A program made the translations under genes and the position numbers. 37,371 bases of DNA, taken from the IMG/VR virus record IMGVR_UViG_2579779116_000018, positions 1-37,371 of that record. One strand, given 5' to 3'. A model generated the notes under the pieces. That model made no database searches. It was not told the origin of the DNA and saw nothing but the letters and a program-made list of their open reading frames with translations. The DNA comes from a virus (Duplodnaviria > Heunggongvirae > Uroviricota > Caudoviricetes). Below are positions 4,581-30,743 of the stretch, piece after piece (positions within the stretch are counted from its first letter, which is position 1; each line of letters opens with the position of its first letter).

Positions 4581-4639
4581 AGTAGTTTCCTCTAAAATAA
4601 TAAGTTCACTACTATTTATTAGAGAAAATTGTCTTACTA

Positions 4640-4667: not shown

Positions 4668-4734
4668 ACGCGACCCTAAATCCCAAACCAACCATATTGA
4701 GGTTATGCCTATAAGTTAAAAAAGTGAGGTCTAT

Positions 4735-11800: not shown

Positions 11801-12610
11801 CATCTGGCGTACTTGTTTACGTACTTTCAGGAATGAATCAACGTTAATGTTTTCAATTGGTACGGATAAGCCATATTTTTCATTTGTTAGGTAGTGGAAA
11901 ATCTGATCCACGCCGTTAGTGCTAGCCTCAATAGCATTGGTTTCAAGGTTACGGATTTTTAAGCCCATAACATCAACCGCTACTTGGCTATTAGGCTGGA
12001 GAATATCAACACCAGCAGCAAGAGATTTATCATCACGACGTAACACAATACACATGGTTGCAATACCATTGCCTTTGTAGTTGTCGTTCCAGTCTGATCC
12101 TAAATGACGTTTTGCCAGTGACAAAGCGGTGTTAGGATTCTTACCCGTGCGAAACTCAACTTCTAAAACTTTCCGGTATTCTTCTTTAATGTTGCCTTTG
12201 TCCAGTACACCATCACGGATCGTCATGTTCTTACCAACAAGAACATTTTTGTTATCGATAAACAGTGCTTTGTAATGGTCGATTTCACCCTCGGCAATAG
12301 CGAAGATTTGCACTAACTTATTGTTTTCTTGCTTGGAAATTGCTTTGTAAACGCAGATTGCACCTGTGCGGGTAGTACCGAAAAGAACGGGTAATACTGT
12401 CTTAGGATCGTTTGATGTTCCTAGTGTCACCGCATTATCTGGGCTTTGTACTTTCGGTGTTTTCGGTGCGCCTACAGTGGAAGCGATCAAGGTCATTGCA
12501 CCAGCAGCCATACCGATAGCGACTGCGGTCATAACAGAAAATGTTGCAGCAGCAGCCATCCCAGCAGACGCACCAGCAATAACCGCGCCTACCAATACTT
12601 CAAATCCCAT
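8834..12610 (-). CDS. tail tip / central fibre protein: gpI C-terminal-like N-terminus fused to gpJ-like host specificity protein (1258 aa)
   Basis: N-terminal Gly/Ala-rich hydrophobic region then PKTPKVQSPDN...LPVLFG resembles the C-terminal half of lambda gpI; central FN3-like repeats; AxI-type beta-helix repeats (NAAIGTAQINDAAITTAKIGNAAINSAKI); C-terminal about 150 aa (SGTLNNVTI..SC.IKG...DDHKFDRQIVIP...VIDMPAGKG) resemble the lambda J receptor-binding end. Start ATG overlaps upstream stop (TAATG). Confidence 0.85.
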   Translation of the reverse strand: MGFEVLVGAVIAGASAGMAAAATFSVMTAVAIGMAAGAMTLIASTVGAPKTPKVQSPDNAVTLGTSNDPKTVLPVLFGTTRTGAICVYKAISKQENNKLVQIFAIAEGEIDHYKALFIDNKNVLVGKNMTIRDGVLDKGNIKEEYRKVLEVEFRTGKNPNTALSLAKRHLGSDWNDNYKGNGIATMCIVLRRDDKSLAAGVDILQPNSQVAVDVMGLKIRNLETNAIEASTNGVDQIFHYLTNEKYGLSVPIENINVDSFLKVRKQVRQMDLHSNGACDPNASFKENLTSLMQTFGGVMFESFGRITLKLDAPDIVKHTFNEDNIMMGKVSLKTGGTNGYFNTINAMYQEPSIDYSEQMLRYPADAENDATIRQDGRIIAKDIEYRFVKSKDQIDKLASIERNKSRITQVISFMTTDAFTAEVWDVISVTYDELKLNNSLWRITAIDRSIDSGIAGMMTITATEYNSQVYTDLNYAANPDNRPSGLPDSMTVQKPTNFRIKATGETIHGKNVTLTWDAPEDFNRYGFQIDYRVSGSPNWIKLGQTSQQIFSVNALAKDRSYDYRVCAFGIIARSDWVELINQNPTVTYELPTPVIRIKNQGSTPGTFEGNDLIIEWENQQGLDVEINGETNKFSDLFEAYIIKVTNKAGKSIQYRTRDPESWTYTLDMNQFNGLSRQLTVEVSAKGYNNSESAPARLVAINPQHKPMKGFSARGGFNTAFVSWADDVEHDYAGSIIQYATDNTFSDARAVSTNSVSHTSFDLADGDYYIRGAHYDIFGMDDAVWSEPYFMQMKSTISWDDQDKEALEDLIGLQDRLDETIADAIAQAGANADAKIDAMHKQITTETGQTVQASADTLKSLIVSGDQASATKIDQVKAELKGDITKEVSASATTLKQAIATSEAASASKIDQVRVEMDGKIAGVNQEADVKIDALKGTINSKYNLAVNADGRVAGIHMSATNDPAQPTRIIFNADKIAVAPQNGSEVCPFGIEGNKVYLDNAMIRNAAIGTAQINDAAITTAKIGNAAINSAKIQDGAITNAKIVNGAIDNAKIGNYIQSSNWNGSTGWHINKNGSATFMNATVKGNITADSGTLNNVTINSSCVIKGMLEATQVKGDFVKVIGRKFPHRDVNVDTGYAGYPQGTVTVRVEDDHKFDRQIVIPAISFGGLRAREGSNNNTYYDTCRLIVRKNGSELYNRAYGGNTGLYSGVIDMPAGKGAVTLTFEVQSSAINNWTPSTWISDLTVMVTKKATTGITVS

Positions 12611-13075: not shown

Positions 13076-13846
13076 TTATTTCTTGAAGTCTTCGTACATT
13101 CTACGAAGGTTGTATTTTGGATGGCCTAAGCTAACCATGATTTGACTCAATTTAACCGCGCCGGGTTTACCGTTTTCAATCCACACGCGCCGGATTTCAT
13201 CGTAATGCTGCCAACAGCCTTGACCTTTAGCAATACGTATAGAATGTGTATATTTCTTGGTAGAGCTTTCTGGTCGCTTGCGCCCTAGATGTGCTTTTCT
13301 AATCTTTTCGCGTGTTTCTTCTGATACAGGTTTACCATAACGGGGGTTATTCTCTCCACGAGTAGCAGCCGATAATTTAGCTAATATTTCTGGGTTTGTT
13401 ACTTTTTTGCCTCTCATTGCACTAGGTTTACCATAGCGATGGTTCTTTTCACCCATTCGAGATGCCGACATTTTAGCTCTAGATTCCGGTGTATGTTTTC
13501 TTCCGTAAAAAGGATGATTTTCACCACCATCAAAACCACCGACACCACCAGGAGCTATATTAAGACATACACCACGCCCCCATTTTTCGCGTGCTGCCTC
13601 CACTAACAGGATTTCACATTCAAACGCTTCCTCGGCAGTATCAAACAATTTTGAACGAACAACTTCAAATTCATATATCGGGGTTTCTGATTCTTTATTT
13701 TTACGCTTCATCATTTTAATAACTTTACCCGATCCCACATATCCATCGTCTAGATTTGTGGTTGTTCTTTTTCCGACGTAATGATAGATTTTACCAGAGC
13801 GATTAGATTTAATAGTGGTGTGATAAACGTAATGGAATTTTTGCAT
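13076..13846 (-). CDS. GIY-YIG homing endonuclease with NUMOD3-type repeats (256 aa)
   Basis: N-terminal HYVYHTT...SGKIYHYVGK...GYVGSG (GIY-YIG module) and three copies of N-x-P-x-Y-G-K/R-x-x-S/T-x-E-T/S-R-x-K-I/M (NUMOD3-like DNA-binding repeats); own RBS; inserted between minor tail genes. Confidence 0.85.
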   Translation of the reverse strand: MQKFHYVYHTTIKSNRSGKIYHYVGKRTTTNLDDGYVGSGKVIKMMKRKNKESETPIYEFEVVRSKLFDTAEEAFECEILLVEAAREKWGRGVCLNIAPGGVGGFDGGENHPFYGRKHTPESRAKMSASRMGEKNHRYGKPSAMRGKKVTNPEILAKLSAATRGENNPRYGKPVSEETREKIRKAHLGRKRPESSTKKYTHSIRIAKGQGCWQHYDEIRRVWIENGKPGAVKLSQIMVSLGHPKYNLRRMYEDFKK

Positions 13847-15185: not shown

Positions 15186-17540
15186 TTACATCTTACGACG
15201 CTGTGCGTCTTCTACCGCCTGAGCAACTAACTTAGCGTGACGTTTGATAGCATCCATAACCATCTTGTCTGAGCTATTAACATTGCCGTTAATGTTCAAA
15301 GGTGCGTTAACTTCAATCGGCTGAGAGTTACCACCACCTGATTTTTGAGCAGCAAGGAAGTCTTTCAAATCACCGTTAGTACGCTGATCAACTACTCGTT
15401 CACCCTTATCAAGCAACCATGTACCCTCACGAGGGATGTTATCAATACCATCATGAGCCATACCGCTAACGTTAGTAGACTTGATGTTTGCGATGCTCCC
15501 CATGTTCTGAGAAACAGCCAATGCAGCAGCAGCGATTTTTTGACCTGTGGTTACGTTGGTCGGATCGTTCCATGCTTCGGTAGCAGCCGTCCACATGTTC
15601 ACCGTCGCTTGTCCAATGGAGAATGCCTTATGAGCATTGAAAGCCATCTGCATAGCTTTAGTGTTTTCCTGCCCGAAGAGAGTCATTGCAGCAGCAAAAC
15701 CGCCATACATATCATCGGCTATTGACTGGCGAGCATCAGCATATTTCTTTTCAATTGCAGCCATCCGTTTTTGATGGTTTTCATTGAGTTTTTCTAATGC
15801 AGCCATCCGTTTAGCTGGATCATTAATACCATCAATATTGAGTTTTTCGGTCTTATAATCTTGTTCAGCTTCCGATTTCTCTTGATCGATTGCATTAAAT
15901 TTAGCAAACGGGTTATTTGAATCCTGATAGTCTAAGCTATTAGTCAATTGATTGGTTTTAAAACCATCCATTCCCTGTAACTGACTATCAATCTGAGAAT
16001 AGTTTTGCTCGGTATCATTCACACGACGCATATATTCTTCGTAGGAGATAGCTTTACCATCAAGTAACCGTTTATGGCTTTCTAGCTCGTTGTCCCTGAT
16101 TTGTTGCAAAACTGTTAAGGCATTCAGAGCATCAATCGGATCAGCACCCAACATCATTTTATAGATGTTTTCTGCGTTCTGATCTAACAGTTGCTGACGT
16201 TTAGCGGCTGCGTCTTGCTGAGAGATTAAGCCCATATCTAAAGCAGTGTCTAAATCTTTCAAGCTGGCTTCTAACTGCTTGTTTTGAGAAGCAATAGACG
16301 CGGCTGTCTGTCCTTGCAATTTAACATCAAGAGCATTCAGTCGCTTGATTGCATCCTCGCGTGCTTTCTGTGCTTTTTCTGCGGCTTCCTTAGCCTTTTT
16401 AGCTGCCTCTTCCGCTTTCTTCTTGGCTTCTTCTTGTTCTTTTTTCGATGGTCCGGTGACGCCTCCACCTTGACCCGTTGGGGTAAATCCGGTATCCGAT
16501 TTATTTCCAGTGATAGTAATTACCGGATCACCGTTTTTATCACGGGTAACGCCTTCACTATCCACCCAACGATCAGGATAATTTGGTTTATTGTTGAAGC
16601 TGGCTTGTCCACCCGCTAGACCAGTAGAACTATAACCATGCTTGTTAATAAAACCACCGTTAGCCATAGCCATATTCTGGCGAGCTTTTTCAAACCTTTC
16701 ATTAAAAGTCTTTAATGCGTTGAATAAAGCGGTCTTTTCCCAATCTTTATCAAACCAGTTGTAAAGATTATTCATCCCTTCAACAACTGGATTTAGTGCA
16801 TTTGCAGCCATACCCTTTAAGTTATCGGTAAGGGTATCCATATTTTTAGAGAATTTATTATATTCTTCGGCTGTGTCATTGGTGATTTTAACAGTTTGCT
16901 GATTAATGGCGTTTACAGCTTCCTGATAAGATCCGTATTTCTGCAATTCATCAGCCATATGACTTGAATCACTGGCTAACGATTCCATCATAAACTTAAC
17001 ATCAGCGATAGACGCACCAGCCTTGCGCATATCATAGAAGACCTTGATCGCCGCTTTCATCCCGCCTTGTGGATCGTTCATAAACTCGGCATAATCTTTA
17101 ATCTTCAAACCTACACTTTCTAGGTCGTCTTCAATACCGCCACCGTTACGCCATGCATCAGCCAGCTTATCTAAGGTGTCTTTGTTAATATCACCAAATT
17201 TCTCAACGGTTAAGCCAGTACCGGAGAATTGCTTCTCTAATTTCTGGAGTGTTTCGACGGTTAAACCAGTTGCTTTTGAAACTTCGCTGTATTCCTTTAC
17301 ATAATCACCGATGGCATTTGCAGCAGAAATAGCGCCAGCAGCCAAACCAACAAAACCACCAGCAGCCAAAGCAAGCGATCCACCAGTTCCGCGAAGGGTT
17401 CCACTTAAACTAGATAAACCACCAGACAAATCAAGATTCATTGCCCTTTCTGAAAGGTTATCAAGCATCTCTATCGCCTGATTGGTACTTCTCCTTAGAC
17501 CGTCATTATCTCCTTCTATTGTTACTATATGTCTTGTCAT
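15186..17540 (-). CDS. tail tape measure protein (784 aa)
   Basis: Long alpha-helical protein with Gly/Ala-rich N-terminal region and Lys/Glu/Ala coiled-coil segment, directly downstream of the G/T chaperone pair; RBS GGGGTAATTT. Confidence 0.85.
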   Translation of the reverse strand: MTRHIVTIEGDNDGLRRSTNQAIEMLDNLSERAMNLDLSGGLSSLSGTLRGTGGSLALAAGGFVGLAAGAISAANAIGDYVKEYSEVSKATGLTVETLQKLEKQFSGTGLTVEKFGDINKDTLDKLADAWRNGGGIEDDLESVGLKIKDYAEFMNDPQGGMKAAIKVFYDMRKAGASIADVKFMMESLASDSSHMADELQKYGSYQEAVNAINQQTVKITNDTAEEYNKFSKNMDTLTDNLKGMAANALNPVVEGMNNLYNWFDKDWEKTALFNALKTFNERFEKARQNMAMANGGFINKHGYSSTGLAGGQASFNNKPNYPDRWVDSEGVTRDKNGDPVITITGNKSDTGFTPTGQGGGVTGPSKKEQEEAKKKAEEAAKKAKEAAEKAQKAREDAIKRLNALDVKLQGQTAASIASQNKQLEASLKDLDTALDMGLISQQDAAAKRQQLLDQNAENIYKMMLGADPIDALNALTVLQQIRDNELESHKRLLDGKAISYEEYMRRVNDTEQNYSQIDSQLQGMDGFKTNQLTNSLDYQDSNNPFAKFNAIDQEKSEAEQDYKTEKLNIDGINDPAKRMAALEKLNENHQKRMAAIEKKYADARQSIADDMYGGFAAAMTLFGQENTKAMQMAFNAHKAFSIGQATVNMWTAATEAWNDPTNVTTGQKIAAAALAVSQNMGSIANIKSTNVSGMAHDGIDNIPREGTWLLDKGERVVDQRTNGDLKDFLAAQKSGGGNSQPIEVNAPLNINGNVNSSDKMVMDAIKRHAKLVAQAVEDAQRRKM

Positions 17541-17543
17541 AAA

Positions 17544-17918
17544 TTACCCCAATTGTCCGCTCTTGAGCTTTTGTAATAATGAAGCGTCGAAAAAACTATC
17601 AACCAAAGCAGCGTTACGTTCTTCCTCTTTCTTACGAGCAATTTCTTTTATTTCTTCTTGCGTTTTAAATTGCTTGTCGTCCTTAATCATTCGGAATTGG
17701 TTAACATTGATTTTATTCAACCATTCACGAGTCATGTTAGGAGATGTAACGTGCATGTAATACATCGACTGTGCATGTCGCGCATCTTGAAACAGGGGGC
17801 TTTGTGGTTCAAGATATGTATCGAATATATGCAACGCCCAAAATAGCGTAATTGGCATATTATCCATCTCATCTTTACTCAAGCCCCGACGCATCATTTG
17901 CCGAAAATAAAAATTCAA
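17544..17918 (-). CDS. tail assembly chaperone T-frame ORF (expected C-terminal part of a G-T fusion)
   Basis: ORF lies in the -1 frame relative to the upstream G-like ORF and overlaps its end. The ORF-track start is a TTG, not a credible independent start; the T frame is open from 17942. Confidence 0.5.
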   Translation of the reverse strand: MNFYFRQMMRRGLSKDEMDNMPITLFWALHIFDTYLEPQSPLFQDARHAQSMYYMHVTSPNMTREWLNKINVNQFRMIKDDKQFKTQEEIKEIARKKEEERNAALVDSFFDASLLQKLKSGQLG

Positions 17919-17926
17919 GAGCGGGT

Positions 17927-18235
17927 TTACTTTACCTCGTTTTCAATTACCGCCGCATCTTTCATCAATGATGCTTGAGCAACTAAGCCGATTAATTCGC
18001 TGCGGACGCTAGTATACAATGCCTTAACTTGTTCAATAGATTCAAATACTGGCTTACCGTCTTCATCTTCAATACAACGAAGAATAGAGCGTTCATCACG
18101 GTCTTTTTTATCAGTATTGAAAACATGTTCATTAAATTCTTGTACCGACATAGGGCGAGCATAGAACGTAAATCCTCCGAGGGTTAAAGATTCACGTTTC
18201 GGAGAAAGAGCTTTCAGCATTTCATTCAGATTCAT
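17927..18235 (-). CDS. tail assembly chaperone, gpG-like (102 aa)
   Basis: Small acidic protein immediately upstream of the T-frame ORF and tape measure gene, the conserved G/GT/TMP arrangement. Confidence 0.6.
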   Translation of the reverse strand: MNLNEMLKALSPKRESLTLGGFTFYARPMSVQEFNEHVFNTDKKDRDERSILRCIEDEDGKPVFESIEQVKALYTSVRSELIGLVAQASLMKDAAVIENEVK

Positions 18236-18280
18236 TATTGTTTCCTCATTAATAGTGATTACGCTGTATTTATTTAGAAT

Positions 18281-18787
18281 TTAAGAGATTTTCAAAGTCT
18301 GCTTAGTGCCAGTCTTCTTAATGTTATTGAGGAAAGCAGCCGGAGGATTGCTTAACCAATAGTAATGAAAACCGCTTTGCATACTGTTATAAGGAACAGT
18401 GACAGCAGCACCACCCAAATTAACGGTTATATTCCCCGCTCTACCGTTCTGGAGATATACAGCCATAGTAGGAGTACCGCCATTGAATTGACCAACGATA
18501 ACGCCAACCAGATGGCCTACGCCCACGTTTTCGGGGTTCTCCATAGATCCTTTACCGCGCATGTCAGTTACTGGATAGTTTGAAGCAGTTACACCCCAGT
18601 TATTACCCAATGAAGTAGACCATGCAGCAGTAGCAACAACCGTATCCATACCACGACCAGCCATTGCCGACATATTACGCGGAGCCGGAACTTTTAAAGC
18701 TGTTAATGCTTCTTTCATCCATCGCTTACCCGTCACTGATACAGCCGATGACCCGATCCAGCCGGGAACTTTAACGACATTTGCCAT
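18281..18787 (-). CDS. hypothetical structural protein (168 aa)
   Basis: Gly-rich protein between the tail tube candidate and the chaperones; RBS GGAG; function unknown. Confidence 0.55.
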   Translation of the reverse strand: MANVVKVPGWIGSSAVSVTGKRWMKEALTALKVPAPRNMSAMAGRGMDTVVATAAWSTSLGNNWGVTASNYPVTDMRGKGSMENPENVGVGHLVGVIVGQFNGGTPTMAVYLQNGRAGNITVNLGGAAVTVPYNSMQSGFHYYWLSNPPAAFLNNIKKTGTKQTLKIS

Positions 18788-18802
18788 TTTGATTACTCCA
18801 AT

Positions 18803-18829
18803 AAAAAAGCCCCACCATTAAGGCAGGGC
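18803..18829 (-). terminator. intrinsic terminator (copy 1 of an identical pair)
   Basis: Minus-strand RNA GCCCUGCC-uuaa-GGUGGGGC (two G-U pairs) followed by UUUUUU; the same 27 nt recurs at 24578-24604. Confidence 0.7.
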
Positions 18830-18946
18830 TTATAATTAATCTTTAGCCTTGCGGCTTCGTTTAGCTGTGGCTTTCGCCGTAACAACCTCAATTTCAGGAA
18901 TCACCGTAGGTTCATCTTGAATTGGCTGGGGTTGTTCTTCGAAAGT

Positions 18947-19423
18947 TCAACCACCAGCGGTAAACACTTCCTGTTTGATCGGAGCACCATCAACAGCAAA
19001 GGTATATTCTTTAGTTACGACTTCTTCATCGCCACCCTGCATAGCCGCTTTAGAGATAAAGCCGTTGAAAGCGGTGCGAATACCAGTCTGCTTACCAGCA
19101 TCAACATAATATTCAATCTTAATCTGAATACGCGTGCCATCTTCGGCTGCCTTATCCAGTTTAGCGTGTACCGCATCACCTGGGATGTAGTTAACGGTCA
19201 GAGTCAGATCAGGAACGTTCAGTTTCCCTACCAGTTTACGGTTATACTGAGAAGAGAAGGATTTAACTTCTACAGTACCGCGTTCGATAGCAGTTTCAGG
19301 GAAGCCAGCGCACTCTTTAATTTCTTCGTAACCGGAGTGATCGAGAGTGGTATTAGTGGTATCCGCGTGATAGAACAGACTTACCAGACCACCAGTAAAA
19401 ATATCTTTAAATTGCTGAGACAT
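18947..19423 (-). CDS. putative major tail tube protein (158 aa)
   Basis: Size and position upstream of G/T chaperones; strong RBS AAGGGGTAATT; followed by the same terminator module as the capsid gene, consistent with a highly expressed major structural protein. Family not confirmed. Confidence 0.6.
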   Translation of the reverse strand: MSQQFKDIFTGGLVSLFYHADTTNTTLDHSGYEEIKECAGFPETAIERGTVEVKSFSSQYNRKLVGKLNVPDLTLTVNYIPGDAVHAKLDKAAEDGTRIQIKIEYYVDAGKQTGIRTAFNGFISKAAMQGGDEEVVTKEYTFAVDGAPIKQEVFTAGG

Positions 19424-19452
19424 AGAATTACCCCTTAATTAAATTGTTATTA

Positions 19453-19471
19453 CGGGGGAACTAGTCCCCCG
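19453..19471. other. GC-rich intergenic hairpin CGGGGGA-actag-TCCCCCG
   Basis: Perfect 7 bp stem between the fibre stop and the tail tube start; a similar hairpin occurs at 36743-36761. Confidence 0.4.
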
Positions 19472-19478
19472 ACTTTTA

Positions 19479-22400
19479 TTATTTAGTTGCTTTGAGTTCG
19501 GCTAATTCAGCTTTCGTTTCGGCAAGTTCTTTAGCCATAGCATCAAACTTAGCGCTCATTTCCTGAAACGCCTTAATTAAAAGAGCGTTGACAGCAGAGT
19601 TAGAAATTGTTAAGATCTCTTCTGGCTTATCAGGATCGCCGATCTTAGAAGTTGTTACTGCTTCCGGCAATTCTTTTTCAAGATCCTGAGCAATAATACC
19701 AACTTCATGAGCGATAACAGTGCGGTCCGTCAAAGACTTAACCTTATCGTAGGTGTACACAGTCAAGCGATTAACTTTATCGGTGGCATTCTCCTTATAC
19801 TCTTCCTTGTTGATTTTCAGACGAGCATCAGAACGAATATAAACATCGTTAAAGTTACCATTGCGTCCAGCTTGGAAATCACCGGAGGCGTTAAAGTCAA
19901 AGTTTGTGGTATGGATATGAAGACGTGCCATAGCATTAGTAATAACACCACTAGGAACGTGTACACCCATTGCCGCGATGTGGTCTAAACCCCATTTGGT
20001 CGCTTTCCATACGTTATATGCGGAAGTTTGAGCATTAGGACAATCAACCAATAAGCCAGCAGCGCGAGTTTTCCATTCTGACCATGCACCACCTTGTACT
20101 TCTCCGCGAATCAAACCACGGTCGCTACCGTTTGCATACCCACGTTCTAAGCGAATCATACCAGTCTGGAAAACATGGTCAAATTCTCCGCTGTTATAGT
20201 TTCGAATGCGCATTTGACCTGAGCCATCACCCCAGATAACACCACGGTTAGTACCATTAGCATCCTTAAACCAGAGTTCTTTATTACCATCTCTATACAT
20301 CTGAATTTGGTTATTGGTACGCAAAACATTAGTAACCACCAAATCACCATTTATCCGAGCACGACCACCCGTTTCTAAACTACCAGCAACTCTGAATTGA
20401 ATCGAACCGTTAGAATCACGCTGAGAATATAGATGATAGCTTGTTTCGTCAGCAAGTTCCCACACCTGAGCGCGAGTTTCATTACCCCAAGATTTAACAA
20501 AGAATACAGATTTCGATCCTTCGTCGTTACGTTCCCAATACAGTCTGCTTCCAAGATGTGTGGTTGCGTTCACTTCAACTCGTTTACGTTCGTTGTTGAG
20601 ACGCATTAAATGATTACCAGCATCGCTACCACCTAGTGTAACGTTACCATTGGCTAGGCTATAGATGAACGGCCTAAAGGTATTCCACGGACCCATAGTG
20701 TCGCCTGATTTTGTGCTCATCAGATAAACGTTACTACCGTCATTTCGCCACCATGAACCATAGTTACCATATACAGTACGGAAGCCATCAGCATATAAAG
20801 AAATGAATTGACCGTTAGTATAAACTCGCTTCATATTGCCAGTTTGAAGTTCTATCTGGCCGTCAATATGTTGACGAATAGAACTACCGCCTACATCACT
20901 ATACCATTCAAAAACGTTAGTATCAGCATTGGCATAACCGATCCATCCTTGACGAGTAATATCTCCAGTACGATTATCTTGAAACGCAATATGGTTGGAT
21001 TGACCAGCAGGTCGGCGTAGTGTAATGGCATTAGATCCGCCATTTAACAGCATACGACCAGAAATAATATTACCTTTATGAGTCCCAGCAATAGAGCTAC
21101 TAGATTCAACGGTTAGAATATCCTGAGCATCAGTGGCACCAGTAGCCAGACGATAGCTGGCACCTTGAACAGTCTCATGCCAGATCATTTCATTATAGTT
21201 ACTACGGAATTTACGAATATATTTCCGTCCAGTACCTCTATCATTGCTTAGATGAACAATGTCATAGCTGTTTTGTGTATTGTCGTCAAAACTCAACACA
21301 CCACGTTTATTTTCGGTGTTGAAAAGAGTTACGTTGCGACCACCGATAACACCAACGGAAGGTTTAATTAACGTGGCTTCCGGCGTATCATAAACCGTCA
21401 AACTTACATAAACAGATTTCCCATATTCGACAATAACGTTATCGGTATAACGCTGATATTTCACGTAGATATCATAGTTATCACCGGAAGTATTGACAGC
21501 AAATACCTCAAAATCTTTGTTTGTATTTCTACGGTATGCAATTACGTTAAGACCTTTAGGTCTATCGTTACCACTACGCAGAAGAATTTCTACTACGTCA
21601 ACCTGATCATATGCCGTAACGCTGTAACCATTACCACCATGAATACGGAAAAACACACTACGCCCGTTTTGTGGAATTGTTGCGGTTGCCAATTTGAAAT
21701 ATGCAGATACGTTTTCGCTAGAATTAGGAACAGACATAACGACGTTTTTAACAAACATCTTATCAACTTCTGCTTTAGTGTATGCACCAATCTCGCCAGG
21801 AGTCGGCTTATCACCTTCGTGATACATCTTATAGCTAAAGTTCTTCTGTCCTTCTCTATCAAAACCATAGGTTTCAACACGAGATCCACCAGACGCATAA
21901 CGGAAAGTAAATCCGCGACCGTGCGCTTTACCGGCAGAATGAGGAACGTTAAGGGTCAGATCCATGAGTCCATCTTGTCCATTGGTACGGAAAGCACCAA
22001 AGTAGTTAAGATCTCGCGCTGTCTGATCTTCCAGATAGTTAGCTGTCTTGCTTAACAAATACCCGCCATGCTTAGTATTGGTATTCTTCTTGATGTAAGC
22101 AGCATCGGCACTACCTTCAATAGAATCAATTCGCTGGTTAGCTGCGGCAATTGCGGCATCAGTAGAAGATTTATTCTGGTCTACCTTGTTGTTAATAGCG
22201 GTATGGTTGCTGTTAACAGTGCCAGTAAGGTTACTGATTTTAGTATCAGCATCTTTCTTGTTGTCGGAAACGACCTTTTCAATCGCTGTTTTGTTAGCTG
22301 CAACCGTGCTAGTTAAGCTAGAAATTTTGTTATCTGCATCGGTTTTATTTGCAGTAACAGTTTTAGTTAAGTTGCTAACGTTGGTGTTAGTGGTATTAAC

Positions 22401-22928
22401 TTTGTTGTTAATCGCGGTGTTATTGTCATTAACCGTCGTGGTTAAAGCTGCGATTTTATTGTCCGCATCTCGTTTATTATTTGCTACAGTAGTTTCTATA
22501 GCTGATTTGTTAGATGCAACTGTCCCTGTAAGGTTATTGATCTTAGTATCAGCATCGGTTTTATTTGCCGTGACTGTCTGGGTTAAGTTACTAACCGTGG
22601 TGTTAGTAGCATCAATGCGCTTATTGGTCGCTGTATCTTTCGTGGTAATAGTCTGATTCAGTTCAGCTTTAGCACTAGCCAGATTATTAGCGGCTTCTTG
22701 TTTGTTGGAAGCAATAACACGGTCAGTGCTAGTTTTGTTATTGTCTACTTTCGTATTCAGTTCAGCGTGTTTTTCTGGAGAAACACTAATTTGGACTACG
22801 TTATTATTTTTGTCTTTGGTGTAAATCACATGATCCGCCAACTGTAAGGCGATTTCACCCTGTGATAATTGTTCCGGCGTTGGTTTTTTACCAGCCGTTT
22901 GTGTGCGTTTAAATTGGATTGATTGCAT
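19479..22928 (-). CDS. fibre protein with C-terminal intramolecular chaperone (peptidase S74) domain (1149 aa)
   Basis: C-terminus SDARLKINKEEY...VIAHEVGIIAQDLEKELPEAV...LLIKAFQEM matches the auto-cleaving chaperone domain of T5 L-shaped fibre / endosialidase type; N-terminal third is Thr/Asn-rich tandem repeats; KPTPGEIGAYTKAEVD motif. Confidence 0.85.
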   Translation of the reverse strand: MQSIQFKRTQTAGKKPTPEQLSQGEIALQLADHVIYTKDKNNNVVQISVSPEKHAELNTKVDNNKTSTDRVIASNKQEAANNLASAKAELNQTITTKDTATNKRIDATNTTVSNLTQTVTANKTDADTKINNLTGTVASNKSAIETTVANNKRDADNKIAALTTTVNDNNTAINNKVNTTNTNVSNLTKTVTANKTDADNKISSLTSTVAANKTAIEKVVSDNKKDADTKISNLTGTVNSNHTAINNKVDQNKSSTDAAIAAANQRIDSIEGSADAAYIKKNTNTKHGGYLLSKTANYLEDQTARDLNYFGAFRTNGQDGLMDLTLNVPHSAGKAHGRGFTFRYASGGSRVETYGFDREGQKNFSYKMYHEGDKPTPGEIGAYTKAEVDKMFVKNVVMSVPNSSENVSAYFKLATATIPQNGRSVFFRIHGGNGYSVTAYDQVDVVEILLRSGNDRPKGLNVIAYRRNTNKDFEVFAVNTSGDNYDIYVKYQRYTDNVIVEYGKSVYVSLTVYDTPEATLIKPSVGVIGGRNVTLFNTENKRGVLSFDDNTQNSYDIVHLSNDRGTGRKYIRKFRSNYNEMIWHETVQGASYRLATGATDAQDILTVESSSSIAGTHKGNIISGRMLLNGGSNAITLRRPAGQSNHIAFQDNRTGDITRQGWIGYANADTNVFEWYSDVGGSSIRQHIDGQIELQTGNMKRVYTNGQFISLYADGFRTVYGNYGSWWRNDGSNVYLMSTKSGDTMGPWNTFRPFIYSLANGNVTLGGSDAGNHLMRLNNERKRVEVNATTHLGSRLYWERNDEGSKSVFFVKSWGNETRAQVWELADETSYHLYSQRDSNGSIQFRVAGSLETGGRARINGDLVVTNVLRTNNQIQMYRDGNKELWFKDANGTNRGVIWGDGSGQMRIRNYNSGEFDHVFQTGMIRLERGYANGSDRGLIRGEVQGGAWSEWKTRAAGLLVDCPNAQTSAYNVWKATKWGLDHIAAMGVHVPSGVITNAMARLHIHTTNFDFNASGDFQAGRNGNFNDVYIRSDARLKINKEEYKENATDKVNRLTVYTYDKVKSLTDRTVIAHEVGIIAQDLEKELPEAVTTSKIGDPDKPEEILTISNSAVNALLIKAFQEMSAKFDAMAKELAETKAELAELKATK
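22070..22720 (-). repeat. in-frame tandem coding repeats within the fibre gene
   Basis: Protein-level repeats of the type TVTANKTDADTKI(N/S)NLTGTV..N.TAIN(N)KV recur several times; nucleotide repeats visible. Approximate bounds. Confidence 0.6.
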
Positions 22929-22944
22929 CTAGAATCACCTCACT

Positions 22945-22977
22945 ATAAAACAGGAATAAGGGAGGCGTTAACCTCCC
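22945..22977 (-). terminator. terminator-like hairpin upstream of the fibre gene
   Basis: Minus-strand GGGAGG-uuaacg-CCUCCC followed by UUAUUCCUGUUUUAU. Confidence 0.45.
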
Positions 22978-23007
22978 AACGTTCATGTTTTATTTAGGTA
23001 AGCAATC

Positions 23008-23841
23008 TTAATACTCACCGAAATCGATCCGGTCAGTCTTAGCCACTGCGCCAATTTCGCTAGGTGTCGGTTTCTCATTGGTGGAATATACCTTGATCCA
23101 TTCAGAACGACCGTTTTCCTGAATATTTCGGACACGTAAACGCGGTGCGCCAGAAGTATTACAGGTTAATTGCCATGCGCCATGCTCATTAGCTTGAAGG
23201 TGAATTAATGCTGTGTCGGTTGAATATGGATTACCGCTAGCAGTTCCCTTGTAAGTTACGAAACGGTTTCCGGCTAATGCCTCGCTATCAATCGGACCCG
23301 TGAAAGGATTTACACCAGCACCGATACCAAAATCACCCTGACGTAAGATACGGCCTTCGGTCGCTATACCCCTTGCTAGAATCCCGCCATCTGGTTCAAG
23401 TTTAAATTCCAGTGTTACAGCTTTGTTATCACTACCACGGGTTTTATGTGATGTGACGTAAGCATCATAGATGACATAGTAACCAGTGTTAGCAGCACTA
23501 TAGCCAGAGTTCACAACATAGAACATACGGAAGCGTAAAGGTGTTTTATCCTCTACCGCTTTCATCAACATTGCTTGATGTTCATCGTCAAGAACACGGT
23601 TTAACGTGAGTGTCGTCGGTTCCAGTCTACGATAACCAGCAAGTTTCCCCGTAGCGTCCTGATCGTACTCTTCCAGAGTTTCTATCTCTGTGGATTCGGT
23701 TAGCGTAGGGAATGCTGCGACGTTCTCAATAGAACTAAAACTAGGATCGAAAAAGTCGACCTGATTGTCTATCTGGTTAGAGATCGACACTTCAACATGT
23801 GATCCAGTGAAAATATCTAAGTTATCTTGTGTAATATTCAT
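23008..23841 (-). CDS. structural protein (277 aa), possibly neck/collar or fibre-associated
   Basis: RBS AAGGGGTAATA; C-terminal EKPTPSEIGA motif shared with the downstream fibre; role not determined. Confidence 0.6.
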   Translation of the reverse strand: MNITQDNLDIFTGSHVEVSISNQIDNQVDFFDPSFSSIENVAAFPTLTESTEIETLEEYDQDATGKLAGYRRLEPTTLTLNRVLDDEHQAMLMKAVEDKTPLRFRMFYVVNSGYSAANTGYYVIYDAYVTSHKTRGSDNKAVTLEFKLEPDGGILARGIATEGRILRQGDFGIGAGVNPFTGPIDSEALAGNRFVTYKGTASGNPYSTDTALIHLQANEHGAWQLTCNTSGAPRLRVRNIQENGRSEWIKVYSTNEKPTPSEIGAVAKTDRIDFGEY

Positions 23842-23850
23842 TATTACCCC

Positions 23851-24273
23851 TTAAAAACGCGCTAGATAAGAAAATTTAAGGCTAAGTGTCCCAACGATAC
23901 CACCATCACTAGAATCATCGTCATAATCGGTATTAGAGGCTACTGGAGTGATATCTGAAATTGAGAAGCCCAAATCTTTAAAACGTGGGTTATCCGGCTG
24001 AATCTGGATTATCTGGCAAATACCCTCATGAATTTTGGTTTCATGAATCTGAGAATATAATTGCATTTCGATAACGCATTCAGCTTGCATTGCATTACCA
24101 CCACGAACACGCGTATAAGTTTCATTCATGCCAGTGATCCAACAAACCACGTCATCACTAAAGCCTTGCTGAGTTTGTTCTACGTTTAAAGCCAGACCTA
24201 AATCTTGTTCGATAATATCTTGCAAGGCGCGTTTGATTTTCAGTCTAGGCATATTATTAACGGTAGCGAGCAT
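23851..24273 (-). CDS. head-tail connector protein candidate (about 140 aa)
   Basis: Start placed at internal ATG 24271-24273 with RBS AGGGGGT; small protein directly after the capsid gene region, typical position of head completion proteins. Confidence 0.5.
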   Translation of the reverse strand: MLATVNNMPRLKIKRALQDIIEQDLGLALNVEQTQQGFSDDVVCWITGMNETYTRVRGGNAMQAECVIEMQLYSQIHETKIHEGICQIIQIQPDNPRFKDLGFSISDITPVASNTDYDDDSSDGGIVGTLSLKFSYLARF

Positions 24274-24547
24274 GTGTACCCCCTGCCAGAGTGATAAAGC
24301 AATCAGAAGTATTATCACCATTGCGCTTAACGTATTGAACTTTGAAACGCTGATTTTCTACAATGACAATATCACCCTGCTTTAAGTCTCCCTCACGACA
24401 AAATAGAAATTCTGTCTCTGTCATTACCCCTTGTTCGTCGGTAGTAGTAATTTCATGATAAGCACGAATTGATTTACCACCTTCCACCGAAAATACAGGA
24501 GCACTCTTAAACATTCTTGATAATTGTGATTCTGATAATTTGAACAT
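24257..24547 (-). CDS. head-tail connector protein candidate (96 aa)
   Basis: RBS AAGGGGGTAACT; first gene after the capsid terminator; typical position of a head-tail adaptor. Confidence 0.5.
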   Translation of the reverse strand: MFKLSESQLSRMFKSAPVFSVEGGKSIRAYHEITTTDEQGVMTETEFLFCREGDLKQGDIVIVENQRFKVQYVKRNGDNTSDCFITLAGGTHARYR

Positions 24548-24577
24548 AGTTACCCCCTTTATGGAGTATTTACATAC

Positions 24578-24604
24578 AAAAAAGCCCCACCATTAAGGCA
24601 GGGC
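24578..24604 (-). terminator. intrinsic terminator (copy 2 of an identical pair)
   Basis: Identical 27 nt to 18803-18829: GCCCUGCC-uuaa-GGUGGGGC then UUUUUU, immediately downstream of the capsid gene. Confidence 0.7.
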
Positions 24605-24697
24605 TAATTATTATTTTGCTTTCGGTGGACGTCCCACCTTTTTAGCTGTGGCTTTCGCCGTAACTACCGGAATTTCTTCCGGCAATTCTTCGTTATT

Positions 24698-26704
24698 TCA
24701 CTCTTCGCCCATTTTCAGAACTTTCAGAGCTTCCGGCTGAACTACGGTGAAGTCCAGGTCTACCCAGATACGCGGAACGATAGCAGACTGTGCGCGGTAA
24801 GTGGTGTCATCCATATCCAGTTCCAGACCACCCCATTCACCGATCATGATACCGGAGAAGTCACCCAGAACGATGTGGTCTGCCGGAATAACGCCAGAAG
24901 TAACTACATCGTAACCAGCCAGTTTGCCGTTTTCGATGATATAACCGGAAACGCCGTTATCTTTCAGGGTAGATTCCAGTTCAGCAGCAGTTGCACCGCT
25001 CATTGCAAACTTGATGGACTGTGCCGGAACGCCAGCGTCGGTCAGTGCTGCAATTTCTTTCAGGAAGTCTTTGTAAGAGAAGGCAGTTTTCTTAGTAACG
25101 CGACCACCGTCTACCAGTTGCTTAACCAGACCAGCCGGACCACGAGTATTATCTTTGTCAGACAGAATCAGTTGTTCCAGTTTGATCCGAACAGCTTTGT
25201 TAATGTGATCAGTGATCAGGGTAGCGATGCCGGGAACTTGCTTGATGCTCGCTCTGCTAATCGGGTTGCCTCCAGCAAACGTCTTAGGAGACATTTTCAC
25301 GTTCGAAAAGGTAGCCTTCGACTCGGGGGCACTTCCATTTTCATCAACAAAACCAAAGGCTTCGACGCTGGAAGCAGTCATTTTTGGTACTGCAATCGGG
25401 CTATTCAGACCAGACAGAACAGTCACACCCAGACGACCCAGACACGAAGCAGGAAGCAGCATTTCGATGTAGGATTCAGTCAGCAGTTTTTCATCGGTGA
25501 TAGCAGTCAGGTCAGCTTTGGTGTTGCCAGCAGCAGCAGCACGCATAGCAGCAGCCGGAACGAATACAGAGCCACCACGAGCAGCACGACCACGCTGCAT
25601 TGCAGCACCAGCAGCCATAGCGGAATATTCAGCTTCGTTAGCACCCAGAGCAGCACCATCTACCAGAGAGCGAATTACGTTGTTCAGGTCAAAAGTTTTT
25701 TCCATGTTTTTTTCCTTATTAATTTGTTCGTTATTACGTTGAGCATTGGTAATGTTATTTAGTGCCTTAGTGCGGAATGCTTCCGGCGTCATGTCTTTAA
25801 TTGCCAATGCGCGTTTCAATTCTTCGTCGTCAATATTTAGTTCGCGTGCAATTTCGCGAATTTCTAATTCGTCTTCTTCGGAACGTTCAGCCACTTCTTC
25901 GATTTTTTCTTCTTCAATCGGAGCGGCTTCACGTTCTTCTTTTACTTCTTCTTCTTCCCGAACAGTTGAACTATCATCATCAACACTTTCAGGATGTTCA
26001 GCGTCTTTTCCGTCTTCGAGATTTTCATCTTCTTTATTCTCTTCAACTTGGCGCTCTTGAGTTTCTTCAACTTCCGATTCTTTATTTTCTTCTACCGGAG
26101 TTTCTTCAACCTGAGCGGATTCTTGTTCTTCTTTGATTTCTTCGATTTGTTCTTTAGTCATATCGCGTTTAGCCCCCAAATTAACTGTGATAGTATTTAG
26201 AGAGCGATTTAAACCGACCGAATCATCGGCAGGGACCGTCACAAATGAAATTTCAAAAGGCGCCCACTTAGTAACAATCAATTGCCCTTTGGTGTAGTCG
26301 ATGTGATATTCTTTAATGTCATAACCGACAGAAATTTTTTCCATCGTACCTTCAATGACTTTATTGCGAATATCATTAGCCAAAGTGCCATGCTTAGAGA
26401 ATTTAACCAGAGCACGACCTACGTTATCCGTATCGATTCGAGCGTCGCAGACTACACCAATGTGATTATCGAAATTATGATTGAACAGCAACGGAGCGTT
26501 ATTATTCAGACGAGACAGATCAACCGCTTCCGGTGTATGTACCAGAATTTCATCTAATACCACCATTTCTTGATTTTGCTCATCCCAGAATTGGCGCTGG
26601 TAAGGCTGGGTACTGGAGAAAGCAATTTCAAATTCGTATTGATCGTTATGCCCTTCATTAATAACTCCACCGTAACCGTTAAGATCGCGGCGAAATTTAA
26701 GCAT
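24698..26704 (-). CDS. prohead protease (S78-like) - scaffold-like linker - HK97-fold major capsid protein fusion (668 aa)
   Basis: N-terminal domain with PLLFNHNFDNHIGVV, KISVGYDIKEYHID and FEISFVTVPADD (caudoviral prohead protease signature); Glu-rich about 120 aa linker; C-terminal about 350 aa typical of HK97-type capsid proteins; single uninterrupted ORF. Confidence 0.85.
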   Translation of the reverse strand: MLKFRRDLNGYGGVINEGHNDQYEFEIAFSSTQPYQRQFWDEQNQEMVVLDEILVHTPEAVDLSRLNNNAPLLFNHNFDNHIGVVCDARIDTDNVGRALVKFSKHGTLANDIRNKVIEGTMEKISVGYDIKEYHIDYTKGQLIVTKWAPFEISFVTVPADDSVGLNRSLNTITVNLGAKRDMTKEQIEEIKEEQESAQVEETPVEENKESEVEETQERQVEENKEDENLEDGKDAEHPESVDDDSSTVREEEEVKEEREAAPIEEEKIEEVAERSEEDELEIREIARELNIDDEELKRALAIKDMTPEAFRTKALNNITNAQRNNEQINKEKNMEKTFDLNNVIRSLVDGAALGANEAEYSAMAAGAAMQRGRAARGGSVFVPAAAMRAAAAGNTKADLTAITDEKLLTESYIEMLLPASCLGRLGVTVLSGLNSPIAVPKMTASSVEAFGFVDENGSAPESKATFSNVKMSPKTFAGGNPISRASIKQVPGIATLITDHINKAVRIKLEQLILSDKDNTRGPAGLVKQLVDGGRVTKKTAFSYKDFLKEIAALTDAGVPAQSIKFAMSGATAAELESTLKDNGVSGYIIENGKLAGYDVVTSGVIPADHIVLGDFSGIMIGEWGGLELDMDDTTYRAQSAIVPRIWVDLDFTVVQPEALKVLKMGEE

Positions 26705-28838: not shown

Positions 28839-30743
28839 TTAGAACGATGTTACCCAGCTACGGCCTCTATTTGGGCGTCTGGCGATGTTTTGACGTTGTG
28901 GTCGTGTGATTGGCTTAGTTTCTTCGATTTGCTCGTCAGATTGCGATTTAGGAGCTTCTACAGGTTCTTCTGGTTCACGGTTCAAACTATCTTTGATGGC
29001 TTCGAGTTTTTCCCATGACATTTTATTGAGTACATGACGAGAAGCAGCATAGGAATAAGCCAGGCAGTCGAGAGCCTCGTTTCGTTGCTGACCAACTTTT
29101 ACCCAACGTGTGGTATTACCCTGCCGTTTCAACTGTTCAGATAACAATTGCTCGCAATAGTCATCAGGAACGTCACCAATCTGGAAGACCGTATGAGGAT
29201 CGCTGTCTCTCAAGTTCCGGTTAATCATTTCACGGATCATCGTCTTAAGGTTGTTTACGCCCAGAATTTTGAGAGTAAAACCGCCCGTTCTTGTGTCCTT
29301 AGCCGGAAGGATTGGAGCATCAGCATTACTTGCGCCTTTAATGGCGCATAGGTTTTGCCACCTAGTGCAAAAACGGTAGATCACGTTTGTAGCTCGTCCG
29401 TTCGATGAGTCCACGAAAGCAGATAACATCGGGATTCGTTCACCGGATCGGGTATAGAATTTCGCTTTCAGGAAGTTATAAAGCTGGTCATATGCTGGCG
29501 ATTCGTGGCGTTCGCAGTTCACATCATAGAATGATCGGTGATCAACTACGCATATCCCCTTACGAGAGATACCCAGCAAGGTAGATTCCAGACGGTCTTT
29601 TTGCTGGTCAACTCCACCTACCAGAGCCAGTACATCATCAGGAATATTGTCTAGGCTAATATCAGTTTTCAGCGTTTCCAGTTCGTCGGCTGTGCGGTCT
29701 TCGTTAAGATCATCGAAGGTTTCGCCTAAGACAGTGTTATAGAACGTTGCCAGGGACATATTCGCGTAGCTATCAGCAAAGTCCACCACACACGCACGGA
29801 TAGAACTAAACGGAGACATAAGGCGGTTAGCATGAAAACCGATTACTTCCGCATTTGGTTCGGTGGCGACCCATTCTCCCTGAGCAACAGCACGGAGGCG
29901 ATCCCCTTCGGTCCAATCGGTTTCACATTCAGGGCAACGGTAAACGGCTGTATCTGGGTTGGGTAATGATTTACCGTTAATCGTATGCCAATCGAAATGT
30001 ACGTTACTCCATTCCATTACGTGCTTGTGTCCGCAATGCTGGCAAACGACATGATATTTTCTCTTATCCGAGAGTTCCCATTGTTGGTTAATCGCCCCAT
30101 CACGAGCGGTTGGAGTGGAAGCAATTACGATCCTTGCATCTTCCCCGAAAGTGGTTGCGCGTTGTTCCGCTAGCTGGATCGGGTTCCCTTCGTCTGACTC
30201 ATCAGCCGCATCAACTTCATCAAGAATAATCAAAGGGAGTGTTTTACCGCGAAGATGTGACGGACTATTCAACGACATGAAATACATAAACGATCCGTTA
30301 CGAAGCTGAATAATCGATGAGTTGTTAACGGCATTGCGATCTGATTTGTCGGTGATCATCGCTTTTAATTCTGGCGTTGCCTCTAATACTGGCTTCACCT
30401 TACCAGCGATCCAAGAATTTAGTTCCCTAACGTTACTTTGCAAGACCCCAATATTAGTAGGGTTACTCGCGATCCGATGGAAGATAATTCCGTTAAGAAT
30501 CATGGTCTTACCCAACTGCGCCGAACATTTAAACACAATTTTTCTACGGTCTTCGGTGATCGCGTCCATCATTCCACGTTGGAAGGGATGCAATTTAATT
30601 AGCGATCCGGCTTTAACACCATCGGTTGCAACTACATTAGCCTCTACCCATTCGCTAGGTTTCATGGCTTTAGGTGGGCGAATTGCAGCAGAGATATTTC
30701 TGAGAATCTTTTTTAATTTTGCCTTATTAGAAATCAGTTTCAT
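28839..30743 (-). CDS. terminase large subunit, lambda gpA-like (634 aa)
   Basis: HPFQRGMMDAI, Walker A-like KCSAQLGKTM, Asp-rich LIILDEVDAADE, Cys cluster CQHCGH...CPEC; first gene of the minus-strand late operon. Confidence 0.9.
   Translation of the reverse strand: MKLISNKAKLKKILRNISAAIRPPKAMKPSEWVEANVVATDGVKAGSLIKLHPFQRGMMDAITEDRRKIVFKCSAQLGKTMILNGIIFHRIASNPTNIGVLQSNVRELNSWIAGKVKPVLEATPELKAMITDKSDRNAVNNSSIIQLRNGSFMYFMSLNSPSHLRGKTLPLIILDEVDAADESDEGNPIQLAEQRATTFGEDARIVIASTPTARDGAINQQWELSDKRKYHVVCQHCGHKHVMEWSNVHFDWHTINGKSLPNPDTAVYRCPECETDWTEGDRLRAVAQGEWVATEPNAEVIGFHANRLMSPFSSIRACVVDFADSYANMSLATFYNTVLGETFDDLNEDRTADELETLKTDISLDNIPDDVLALVGGVDQQKDRLESTLLGISRKGICVVDHRSFYDVNCERHESPAYDQLYNFLKAKFYTRSGERIPMLSAFVDSSNGRATNVIYRFCTRWQNLCAIKGASNADAPILPAKDTRTGGFTLKILGVNNLKTMIREMINRNLRDSDPHTVFQIGDVPDDYCEQLLSEQLKRQGNTTRWVKVGQQRNEALDCLAYSYAASRHVLNKMSWEKLEAIKDSLNREPEEPVEAPKSQSDEQIEETKPITRPQRQNIARRPNRGRSWVTSF

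Follow-up and report, generated by a model that had tools for sequence, protein, structure and literature searches.

A tail-tube paralogue with a gp36-type C-terminus as the probable anchor of a T-even-type fibre in siphovirus prophages

Results

A tube-fold protein with a gp36-type C-terminus

The window analysed here is a 37,371-nucleotide (nt) stretch of a tailed virus (Caudoviricetes; positions 1 to 37,371 of the IMG/VR record IMGVR_UViG_2579779116_000018), with a G+C content of approximately 41% and with all structural genes on the minus strand. It is 99% identical to a prophage in ycdX of Escherichia coli VTB96775v (NZ_CP178634), and related prophages were present in 55 of 5426 complete E. 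coli genomes. We focus on two adjacent genes of its siphovirus-type module, which encode a protein of 277 amino acids (aa) and a fibre of 1149 aa. A first-pass annotation had placed the fibre, with its S74 domain, between head-completion genes and the tail-tube gene, and had proposed that the 277-aa protein anchors it; coordinates, domain (residues 1033-1092) and gene order were correct, and the anchoring is supported here on grounds other than the motif on which it had been based, namely because of tube-fold paralogy, a gp36-like C-terminus, a gp37 joint on the fibre, and covalent fusions in relatives. The 277-aa gene, its parts and the tube gene are as follows.

23008-23841, minus strand: gene of the 277-aa protein
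23353-23841, minus strand: residues 1-163, tail-tube-fold domain, paralogue of the major tube protein
23077-23352, minus strand: residues 164-255, conserved Gly-rich linker (GDFGIGAG) and fibre-type knob, with columns invariant in the family
23047-23076, minus strand: EKPTPSEIGA, a generic fibre-module junction motif
23008-23046, minus strand: C-terminal peptide VAKTDRIDFGEY and stop codon, gp36-type terminal joint ("plug")
18947-19423, minus strand: 158-aa major tail-tube protein (phrog_158, E 3e-21)
18807-18831, minus strand: intrinsic-terminator-like hairpin 3' of the tube gene, with a near-identical copy 3' of the capsid gene (24583-24605)

The N-terminal part of the 277-aa protein has a tail-tube fold with a single tube domain. 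The protein matched phrog_158 ("major tail protein", E 7e-9) and aligned with the 158-aa tube protein at 29% identity over the full length of the latter (E 8e-15). Its AlphaFold2 (AF2) model had a predicted local distance difference test score (pLDDT) of 70-93 in the tube domain, and its matches in BFVD were tube proteins without exception; a Pfam search gave no match. Sequence comparison indicates an ancient paralogy between the 277-aa and 158-aa proteins. The tube domains of the 277-aa family and the major tube proteins formed separate clades, with a mean identity of 31% in the former and 44% in the latter, and the duplication therefore appears to be old, predating the diversification of the group.

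Gene position, higher conservation and a downstream terminator hairpin of the capsid type identify the 158-aa protein as the major subunit of the tube. Its gene occupies the usual place upstream of the tail assembly chaperones, with only a gp38-like gene interposed, whereas the 277-aa gene lacks the position directly upstream of the chaperones expected of the bulk subunit. As the major tube role is held by the 158-aa gene, the 277-aa protein is regarded as an additional tube-fold component. A role as tail terminator was considered for it and rejected, the terminator fold being found in the upstream 140-aa protein.

These observations bear on an alternative in which the 277-aa protein co-polymerises with the 158-aa protein, or replaces it, throughout the tube, so that fibres decorate the whole tail in the manner of the lambda gpV Ig domain or of SPP1 gp17.1*. 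The 277-aa protein is colinear with the major tube protein, shows no obvious loss of ring-contact elements, and carries no sequence feature that dictates a unique position, all of which would be compatible with such decoration. On the other hand, position, conservation and terminator all single out the 158-aa gene as that of the bulk subunit; most relatives have, as the counterpart of the 277-aa protein, a fibre of 700-1350 aa, implausible as a bulk tube subunit; and the second paralogue of the related locus L004 appears by eye to carry an Ig-type decoration domain of the kind typical of major tube proteins. Tube-wide incorporation is thus quite unlikely in our estimation.

The C-terminal part of the 277-aa protein resembles gp36, a component of the distal half-fibre of T-even phages. 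Residues 180-277 aligned end-to-end with residues 396-496 of gp36 of phage GEC-3S, an RB49-like (Krischvirus) phage (BLASTP E 1e-5), and a profile comparison (hhalign) of the C-terminus with Krischvirus-type gp36 gave a probability of 90% (E 1.6e-6). The knob aligned with GEC-3S gp36 residues 396-484 and weakly with the XM1 collar spike, which was the sole match in a profile search of PDB sequences (E 0.3). The homology to gp36 is limited to the C-terminal approximately 100 residues, with the tube domain standing in place of the gp36 N-terminus. Both the knob and the terminal joint peptide of gp36 are present: the 277-aa protein ends in ...WIKVYSTNEKPTPSEIGAVAKTDRIDFGEY and GEC-3S gp36 in ...YQLYHEGNKPTPADVGAVPLNAVIDFGTF (terminal AVIDFGTF), while T4 gp36, which ends in ...VQDFGYY, matches the plug in its last residues only. 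In an alignment of 26 sequences, D273 and G275 were invariant, and F274 was conserved in at least 90%.

A gp37-type fibre and a gp38-type adhesin

The fibre gene and the adhesin gene contain the following features.

19479-22928, minus strand: gene of the 1149-aa fibre
22776-22928, minus strand: residues 1-51, gp37-type N-terminal joint ("socket"), MQSIQFKRTQTAGKKPTPEQLSQGEIALQLADHVIYTKD
22062-22775, minus strand: residues 52-289, Asn/Thr-rich repetitive shaft, probably coiled coil
19553-22061, minus strand: residues ~290-1125, gp37 body from RB49-like (Krischvirus) T-even phages
21783-21812, minus strand: DKPTPGEIGA, inside the gp37 body
20661-20957, minus strand: Gp34_trimer (Pfam), inside the gp37 body
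19653-19832, minus strand: S74 intramolecular chaperone (Peptidase_S74, PF13884, E 1.4e-11)
18281-18787, minus strand: 168-aa gp38-type tail-fibre adhesin with an N-terminal attachment domain of the T2/T6/S16 type

The fibre combines the N-terminal joint of gp37 with a gp37 body and a C-terminal Peptidase_S74 domain. Its residues 1-62 matched residues 4-65 of T4 gp37 (BLASTP E 1e-10), its N-terminus matched residues 4-54 of GEC-3S gp37 (E 4e-10), and the joint has the pattern IQFKR...GEIA...TKD. Further, residues 290-1146 share 86% amino-acid identity with residues 71-920 of GEC-3S gp37, and the body shares approximately 81-92% DNA identity with gene 37 of Krischvirus/RB49-like phages; it is evidently a recent import from such phages. 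The shaft in between is homologous to a separate 198-aa connector protein of the Proteus prophage L090 (BLASTP 39% identity, E 2e-33), and Tandem Repeats Finder detected no DNA tandem repeat in it. The fibre looks like a connector of the Proteus type fused to a gp37 devoid of its first 70 residues.

The 168-aa protein encoded beyond the tube gene carries the Gp38_N attachment domain of gp38-type adhesins (PF21721, E 4e-15; phrog_1121, E 1e-34) and matched the N-termini of T2 and T6 gp38 by tblastn; its C-terminal part is unlike the GP38 domain of T2. With a gp36 C-terminus, a gp37 and an adhesin of the gp38 type all encoded, the window contains the components of a T-even distal half-fibre.

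Translational coupling or frameshifting from the 277-aa gene into the fibre gene was also considered and rejected: the frames differ, and a gap of 79 nt containing a hairpin and the fibre's own Shine-Dalgarno sequence lies between them.

Some variation was seen around these genes. Prophage L001 is otherwise 99% identical to the window, but the two fibres diverge in the stretch 19479-20370 of the window (L001 16559-17450), with 52% amino-acid identity after approximately residue 855, which amounts to a swap of the receptor-binding end among nearly identical prophages. In E. coli, the tube gene and its transcription terminator separate the gp38-like gene (18281-18787) from the fibre gene, and in the Edwardsiella prophage L091 a full T2-type gp38 (Gp38_N plus GP38, 256 aa; 11524-12294) lies immediately after the fibre gene, ahead of the tube gene. 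In Krischvirus records, Gp38_N-like genes lie far from gene 37 (JK32, MK962753, 47682-47801; ELT4, OM803178, 4382-4501), although this distance is in record coordinates and may reflect the start point of each record.

The motif on which the first-pass annotation had relied was followed through both proteins. Across the six-frame translation of the window, the strict pattern [ED]KPTP[SG]EIGA occurs twice, at residues 256-265 of the 277-aa protein and 373-382 of the fibre. One strict copy per protein therefore stands, while the additional copy reported at the fibre N-terminus does not: it reads only KKPTPEQLSQGEIA, with KPTP and a displaced GEIA, and belongs to the gp37-type joint. Nor does the motif form the very C-terminus of the 277-aa protein as had been thought, since 12 further residues (VAKTDRIDFGEY) follow, and these are the more informative part. 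Both strict copies sit in a homologous module of 42 residues (E 4e-4). Motifs of the KPTP.EIGA type occur in four copies in GEC-3S gp36 and in many unrelated long fibres, which contain 4-8 matched stretches.

The identical 10-residue pattern in the two proteins, found nowhere else in the window, could be read as the surface through which they interact. The first-pass annotation had taken the shared motif as a sign of anchoring, with the proviso that a generic fibre repeat without interaction would speak against this. The motif has turned out to be a generic repeat. The fibre copy (residue 373, approximately gp37 residue 154) lies approximately 80 residues beyond the start of the Krischvirus homology and hence within the Krischvirus-derived body, and the recurrence in GEC-3S gp36 and in unrelated fibres likewise argues against a specific contact. 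We consider a contact through the motif barely credible. Judging from the sequences, KPTP.EIGA is a generic repeated fibre-module junction and not the contact itself, and it marks where, in a single trimer, a knob gives way to the shaft segment that follows.

Conserved joints and covalent fusions in relatives

We then compared the anchor and fibre genes across related loci. Across E. coli, Salmonella, Providencia, Edwardsiella and Proteus, the form of 275-281 aa was kept at 49-97% identity; residues that never vary lie in each of its parts, from the tube domain through the Gly-rich linker GDFGIGAG and the knob to the terminal D.G. In the forms of 465, 482 and 698 aa, the additional length consists solely of shaft segments inserted between two KPT..IGA motifs, and the D(F/L)G.. 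peptide again stands at the end. The plug end, (I/M/Q)D(F/L)G.., always preceded a protein with an IQFKR-type joint, at seven of seven prophage-type junctions (the window, Salmonella L089, Edwardsiella L091, two in Proteus L090 via the 198-aa connector, L004, and DCP80) and in both T-even gp36/gp37 pairs examined. None of 60 one-piece relatives had a C-terminal joint or a second fibre gene.

The Proteus mirabilis prophage L090 (7001-10516) encodes a fibre chain of three links. Its 275-aa anchor (ending ...IDFGEF) is followed by the 198-aa connector, which has an N-terminal gp37 joint, a coiled coil and a C-terminus ending ...MDFGTF, and the connector is followed by a 675-aa fibre with its own N-terminal gp37 joint.

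An exhaustive HMMER search returned 165 matching representatives of 50%-identity clusters, with Serratia, Pantoea, Atlantibacter and Rouxiella among the named hosts. Dozens of these representatives are 400-1560 aa long and start with the same tube domain, linker and knob; those inspected end in a coiled-coil tail after an S74 chaperone, in other C-terminal domains, or in a gp36-type joint. Most relatives have a homologue of 700-1350 aa, a complete fibre of which the tube domain is a covalent part. The order terminator, tube-fibre fusion, tube, chaperones and tape measure was kept in more than 60 IMG/VR contigs. In contigs of approximately 26-36 kb, the whole module was syntenic from terminase to J: terminase, 160-aa protein, portal, capsid, 95-aa protein, 135-aa protein, tube-fibre fusion, 150-aa tube protein, chaperones, tape measure, distal tail protein, hub and J.

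Compared with the relatives of 465-698 aa, the 277-aa form resembles an internal deletion between two KPT..IGA motifs, and the gene might accordingly be a decaying remnant of a longer fused fibre gene, such as that of the 698-aa DCP80 protein, with the fibre attached elsewhere, for example to the distal tail protein or J. Such decay is difficult to reconcile with the retention of the 275-281-aa form, and of unchanging residues in each of its three parts, from E. coli to Proteus, with the purifying selection on the gene (ratio of nonsynonymous to synonymous substitution rates, dN/dS, 0.05-0.09), or with the retained terminal DFGE(F/Y) and the gp37-joint protein that always comes next. We therefore hold the remnant explanation to be very unlikely.

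The DCP80 record ("Escherichia phage DCP80", GenBank PQ671644; L002/L092) calls for a separate remark. It is probably a chimeric assembly, in which rIIA occurs twice in opposite orientation; a siphovirus module like that of the window takes up the first approximately 26 kb, and the remainder is T4-like. If the siphovirus part came from a lysate, a phage of this type may have existed as particles.

Proposed anchoring and its level on the tail

In T4, the C-terminus of gp36 binds the N-terminus of gp37, and by this correspondence the 277-aa protein is the likely fibre anchor. Our analyses suggest that it is probably a minor tail-tube protein that anchors the 1149-aa fibre, a reading in which we have reasonable though not strong confidence. 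We propose that its gene began as an ancient copy of the major tube gene and became joined to the sequence for the knob and end peptide at the C-terminus of a T-even gp36. The tube-fold domain would be incorporated into the tail tube, forming a ring or half of one, and three neighbouring C-terminal extensions would trimerise into a gp36-like knob, giving two fibres per hexameric ring. The terminal ...IDFGEY peptide is predicted to dock the IQFKR...GEIA...TKD joint of the fibre in the same pairing as in T4 gp36-gp37. The fibre would fold via its own S74 chaperone, which would then be released, and the 168-aa adhesin may cap the tip once the chaperone has gone. The outcome would be a T-even distal half-fibre on a siphovirus tail, alongside the central J-like fibre. 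Where the fibre is made in one piece, as in the relatives described above, each trimer would offer three tube "feet", equivalent to half a ring.

Several points weigh against this proposal. The AF2 monomer has a pLDDT below 50 at residues 163-218, and its C-terminal half is unreliable. The combination of a six-fold ring with three-fold fibres demands that a linker of 40 residues unite three neighbouring chains. The comparison with the T4 gp36 profile was not significant beyond the last residues, and homology is therefore claimed with Krischvirus-type gp36 only. We know of no atomic-level structure of the gp36-gp37 contact, and that the terminal peptides themselves form it is our supposition from the sequences. 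The anchor design is deduced from gene sequences, and tblastn searches with the anchor and a distant one-piece homologue against phage isolates found only the DCP80 record. Finally, the position of the anchor gene between terminator and tube does not agree with a ring near the tail tip.

The tube paralogues T4 gp54 and Pvc5, among others, sit at the tip or baseplate end. Given an anchor in the tube, a tip-proximal ring beside the distal tail protein is favoured, at about an even chance, because of the analogy with T5 p140, a product of tube-gene duplication that lies between the distal tail protein and the first tube ring and bears the fibre collar (PMC10038345; PMC10713586). A ring under the terminator would come second, clearly behind, and scattered incorporation along the tail would be less probable still.

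The head-proximal placement amounts to a neck or collar fibre, as suggested in the first-pass annotation, in which the same anchor and joint are used but the ring is the last one under the tail terminator, so that the fibres hang from the neck. The order terminator (the 140-aa protein), anchor, fibre and major tube was kept in all related loci examined, and phage gene order often mirrors physical order. Moreover, the anchor tube domain, like the terminator, evolves faster than the tube and distal tail proteins, and the knob has its weak match (E 0.3) to the XM1 collar spike. Against this stand the tube-paralogue precedents T5 p140, T4 gp54 and Pvc5, and also the lengths of one-piece fibres and tape measures, which showed no significant correlation (rho 0.19, p 0.16, n=55), a result that is uninformative rather than decisive. 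We judge the neck placement, taken by itself, to be unlikely, though not to the point of dismissal.

A broader combination, in which the fibres carry their own tube domains, a ring consists of two fibre trimers, and the ring is head-proximal under the terminator or occurs at several levels of the tail, is rather improbable in our estimation. If true, it would mean long neck- or tail-mounted receptor-binding fibres on siphoviruses of a large uncultured group of Enterobacterales prophages, with segments freely exchanged with T-even myoviruses via a portable plug-and-socket joint of gp36 C-terminus and gp37 N-terminus.

Comparison with known fibre attachments

The closest counterpart is the distal half-fibre of T-even phages, especially those of Krischvirus RB49 and GEC-3S. 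Shared features are the gp36 knob with its ...KPTP..GAV...IDFG.F terminal peptide, the gp37 N-terminal IQFKR...GEL/IA...TKD joint and a gp37 body 86% identical to that of GEC-3S, the S74 intramolecular chaperone, and the N-terminal attachment domain of gp38. The attachment to the virion is different. T-even fibres are connected through the gp36 N-terminus to the gp35 hinge, gp34 and the baseplate, whereas the window phage is not a myovirus with a baseplate, its module has no gene for the gp34 proximal half-fibre or the gp35 hinge (only a gp34-type trimerisation domain inside the fibre), and the gp35-binding N-terminal part of gp36 is replaced by a tail-tube domain. In addition, a repetitive shaft of approximately 240 residues is inserted after the gp37 joint, and the gp38-like gene is split from the fibre gene by the tube gene.

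Decorated tube proteins such as lambda gpV with its Ig domain, SPP1 gp17.1* and T5 pb6 combine a tube domain with an outward C-terminal extension. There, the extension is a monomeric Ig or FN3 domain on all or many subunits, while in the window a predicted trimer-forming fibre module is carried by a minor paralogue. T4 fibritin whiskers and the lactococcal collar and whisker (neck passage structure, NPS) are known neck appendages; the anchor gene shares with them its place near head-completion genes, but no sequence or fold similarity to the window proteins was found, and we know of no tube-fold anchor among them.

In T5 and DT57C (p140 TTMP, collar p132/LtfC, pb1/LtfA), an extra tube-fold ring arises by duplication of the tube gene. 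For the 277-aa protein, paralogy and tube fold are supported by the sequences, and assembly into a ring is proposed. T5 p140 has two tube domains per chain, forming a trimeric ring, and no fibre part, whereas the 277-aa protein has a single tube domain. The T5 fibres are held non-covalently by a dodecameric Ig-like collar, while the tube domain is fused to the fibre base in the window and to the whole fibre in relatives. The conserved genes of the window module included no evident candidate for a T5-type collar, although no specific search was made. According to the T5 authors, p140/p132 is a landmark of T5-like phages only. In the side fibres mounted on distal tail proteins (monocin FtbK, 80alpha and TP901-1), a tube-fold ring at the tip bears trimeric fibres with the same six-fold/three-fold mismatch (PMC11830787). 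By contrast, the anchor of the window is a paralogue of the major tube protein with its gene upstream of the tube gene, and a plain 186-aa distal tail protein is encoded separately.

A literature search for a fusion of tube domain and fibre found no description of one. The parts (tube fold, gp36/gp37/gp38 modules, S74 chaperone) are known, while their combination was not found elsewhere in the literature searched or in isolates, the probably chimeric DCP80 record aside. The fixing of side fibres on non-contractile tails is known for few systems, namely the T5 collar, the distal-tail-protein loops of Gram-positive phages and monocin, and the lambda tip. The known modes of anchoring are non-covalent, by a collar of Ig-like domains or by distal tail protein loops (PMC10713586; PMC11830787; PMC10038345), and the authors of the T5 structure noted that anchoring must differ in other siphoviruses. 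The window suggests a third way, in which a duplicate of the tube domain is continuous with the base of the fibre or with the entire fibre, and the arrangement was kept across many 50%-identity protein clusters and in prophage modules of E. coli, Salmonella, Serratia, Pantoea, Proteus and others. It also suggests that the T-even gp36/gp37 joint is a portable connector outside myoviruses, which chains three proteins in the Proteus relative and in the window accompanies the recent import of an RB49-like gp37 body into a temperate siphovirus. In practical terms, this bears on the prediction of host range from prophage sequences, and the joint itself and the KPT..IGA module junctions may serve as splice points for fibre engineering.

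Neighbouring genes and other features of the window

The remaining structural genes are listed in module order.

28839-30743, minus strand: large terminase, first in the structural-gene order
minus strand, between terminase and protease-capsid fusion: 164-aa protein, then lambda-type portal
24698-26704, minus strand: protease-capsid fusion
24257-24547, minus strand: 96-aa gpFII-like head-tail joining (stopper) protein (weak Phage_attach match, E 2e-4; seven of nine family members match)
23851-24273, minus strand: 140-aa tail terminator with terminator fold (alternative open reading frame start at 24321, giving 156 aa)
minus strand, between the gp38-like gene and the tape measure: two tail assembly chaperones
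15186-17540, minus strand: tape measure
minus strand, after the tape measure: distal tail protein, plain and separate (186 aa, phrog_1302)
minus strand, end of the module: hub proteins, then 1258-aa J-like tip protein

Apart from the fibre body, no close DNA relatives of the window were found among 50,697 phage records. In DNA searches against these records, positions 17500-19500 gave no match, and positions 22000-26000 gave only short or weak ones: a 62-nt edge of gp37, the capsid gene with DCP80 (70% over 232 nt), and two short matches to Klebsiella fibres.

Between a hub gene and a DUF6950 gene lies a 256-aa open reading frame with three NUMOD3 motifs (13076-13846, minus strand), a motif type known from homing endonucleases; it is missing from the 99% identical prophage of NZ_CP178634. 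Positions 578-6794 hold cargo beside a serine recombinase (1652-3331) and are unlike the matching region of the near-identical prophage. This block encodes three proteins with a CapR homology domain (578-1624, plus strand; 3405-4691, minus strand, with a MUG113/T5orf172 domain; 4735-5304, plus strand) and a UvsW-like helicase (5295-6794, plus strand).

The capsid and 158-aa tube genes both end in TGA-A, followed by an in-frame open extension with a shared peptide (24613-24700 and 18839-18949, minus strand). The capsid extension reads ...MGEE, stop, NNEELPEEIPVVTAKATAKKVGRPPKAK, followed by two stops, and the tube extension ...TAGG, stop, TFEEQPQPIQDEPTVIPEIEVVTAKATAKRSRKAKD, stop. TGA-A with an open extension was also present in three diverged E. 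coli variants with in-frame indels (108/117/123 nt), and a similar tail lies within the open reading frame of the Edwardsiella tube protein and, less closely, of its Proteus counterpart. The dN/dS of the extension is 0.3-0.6, a weak signal. Programmed read-through of TGA may yield C-extended capsid and tube proteins, reminiscent of the Cps and Tsh proteins of the Listeria phages PSA and A118, which are reportedly frameshifted. Two pairs of 36-nt direct repeats, 18803-18838/24578-24613 (94% identical) and 18860-18895/24641-24676 (92%), indicate that a terminator-bearing stretch of approximately 100 nt after the capsid and tube genes has been duplicated.

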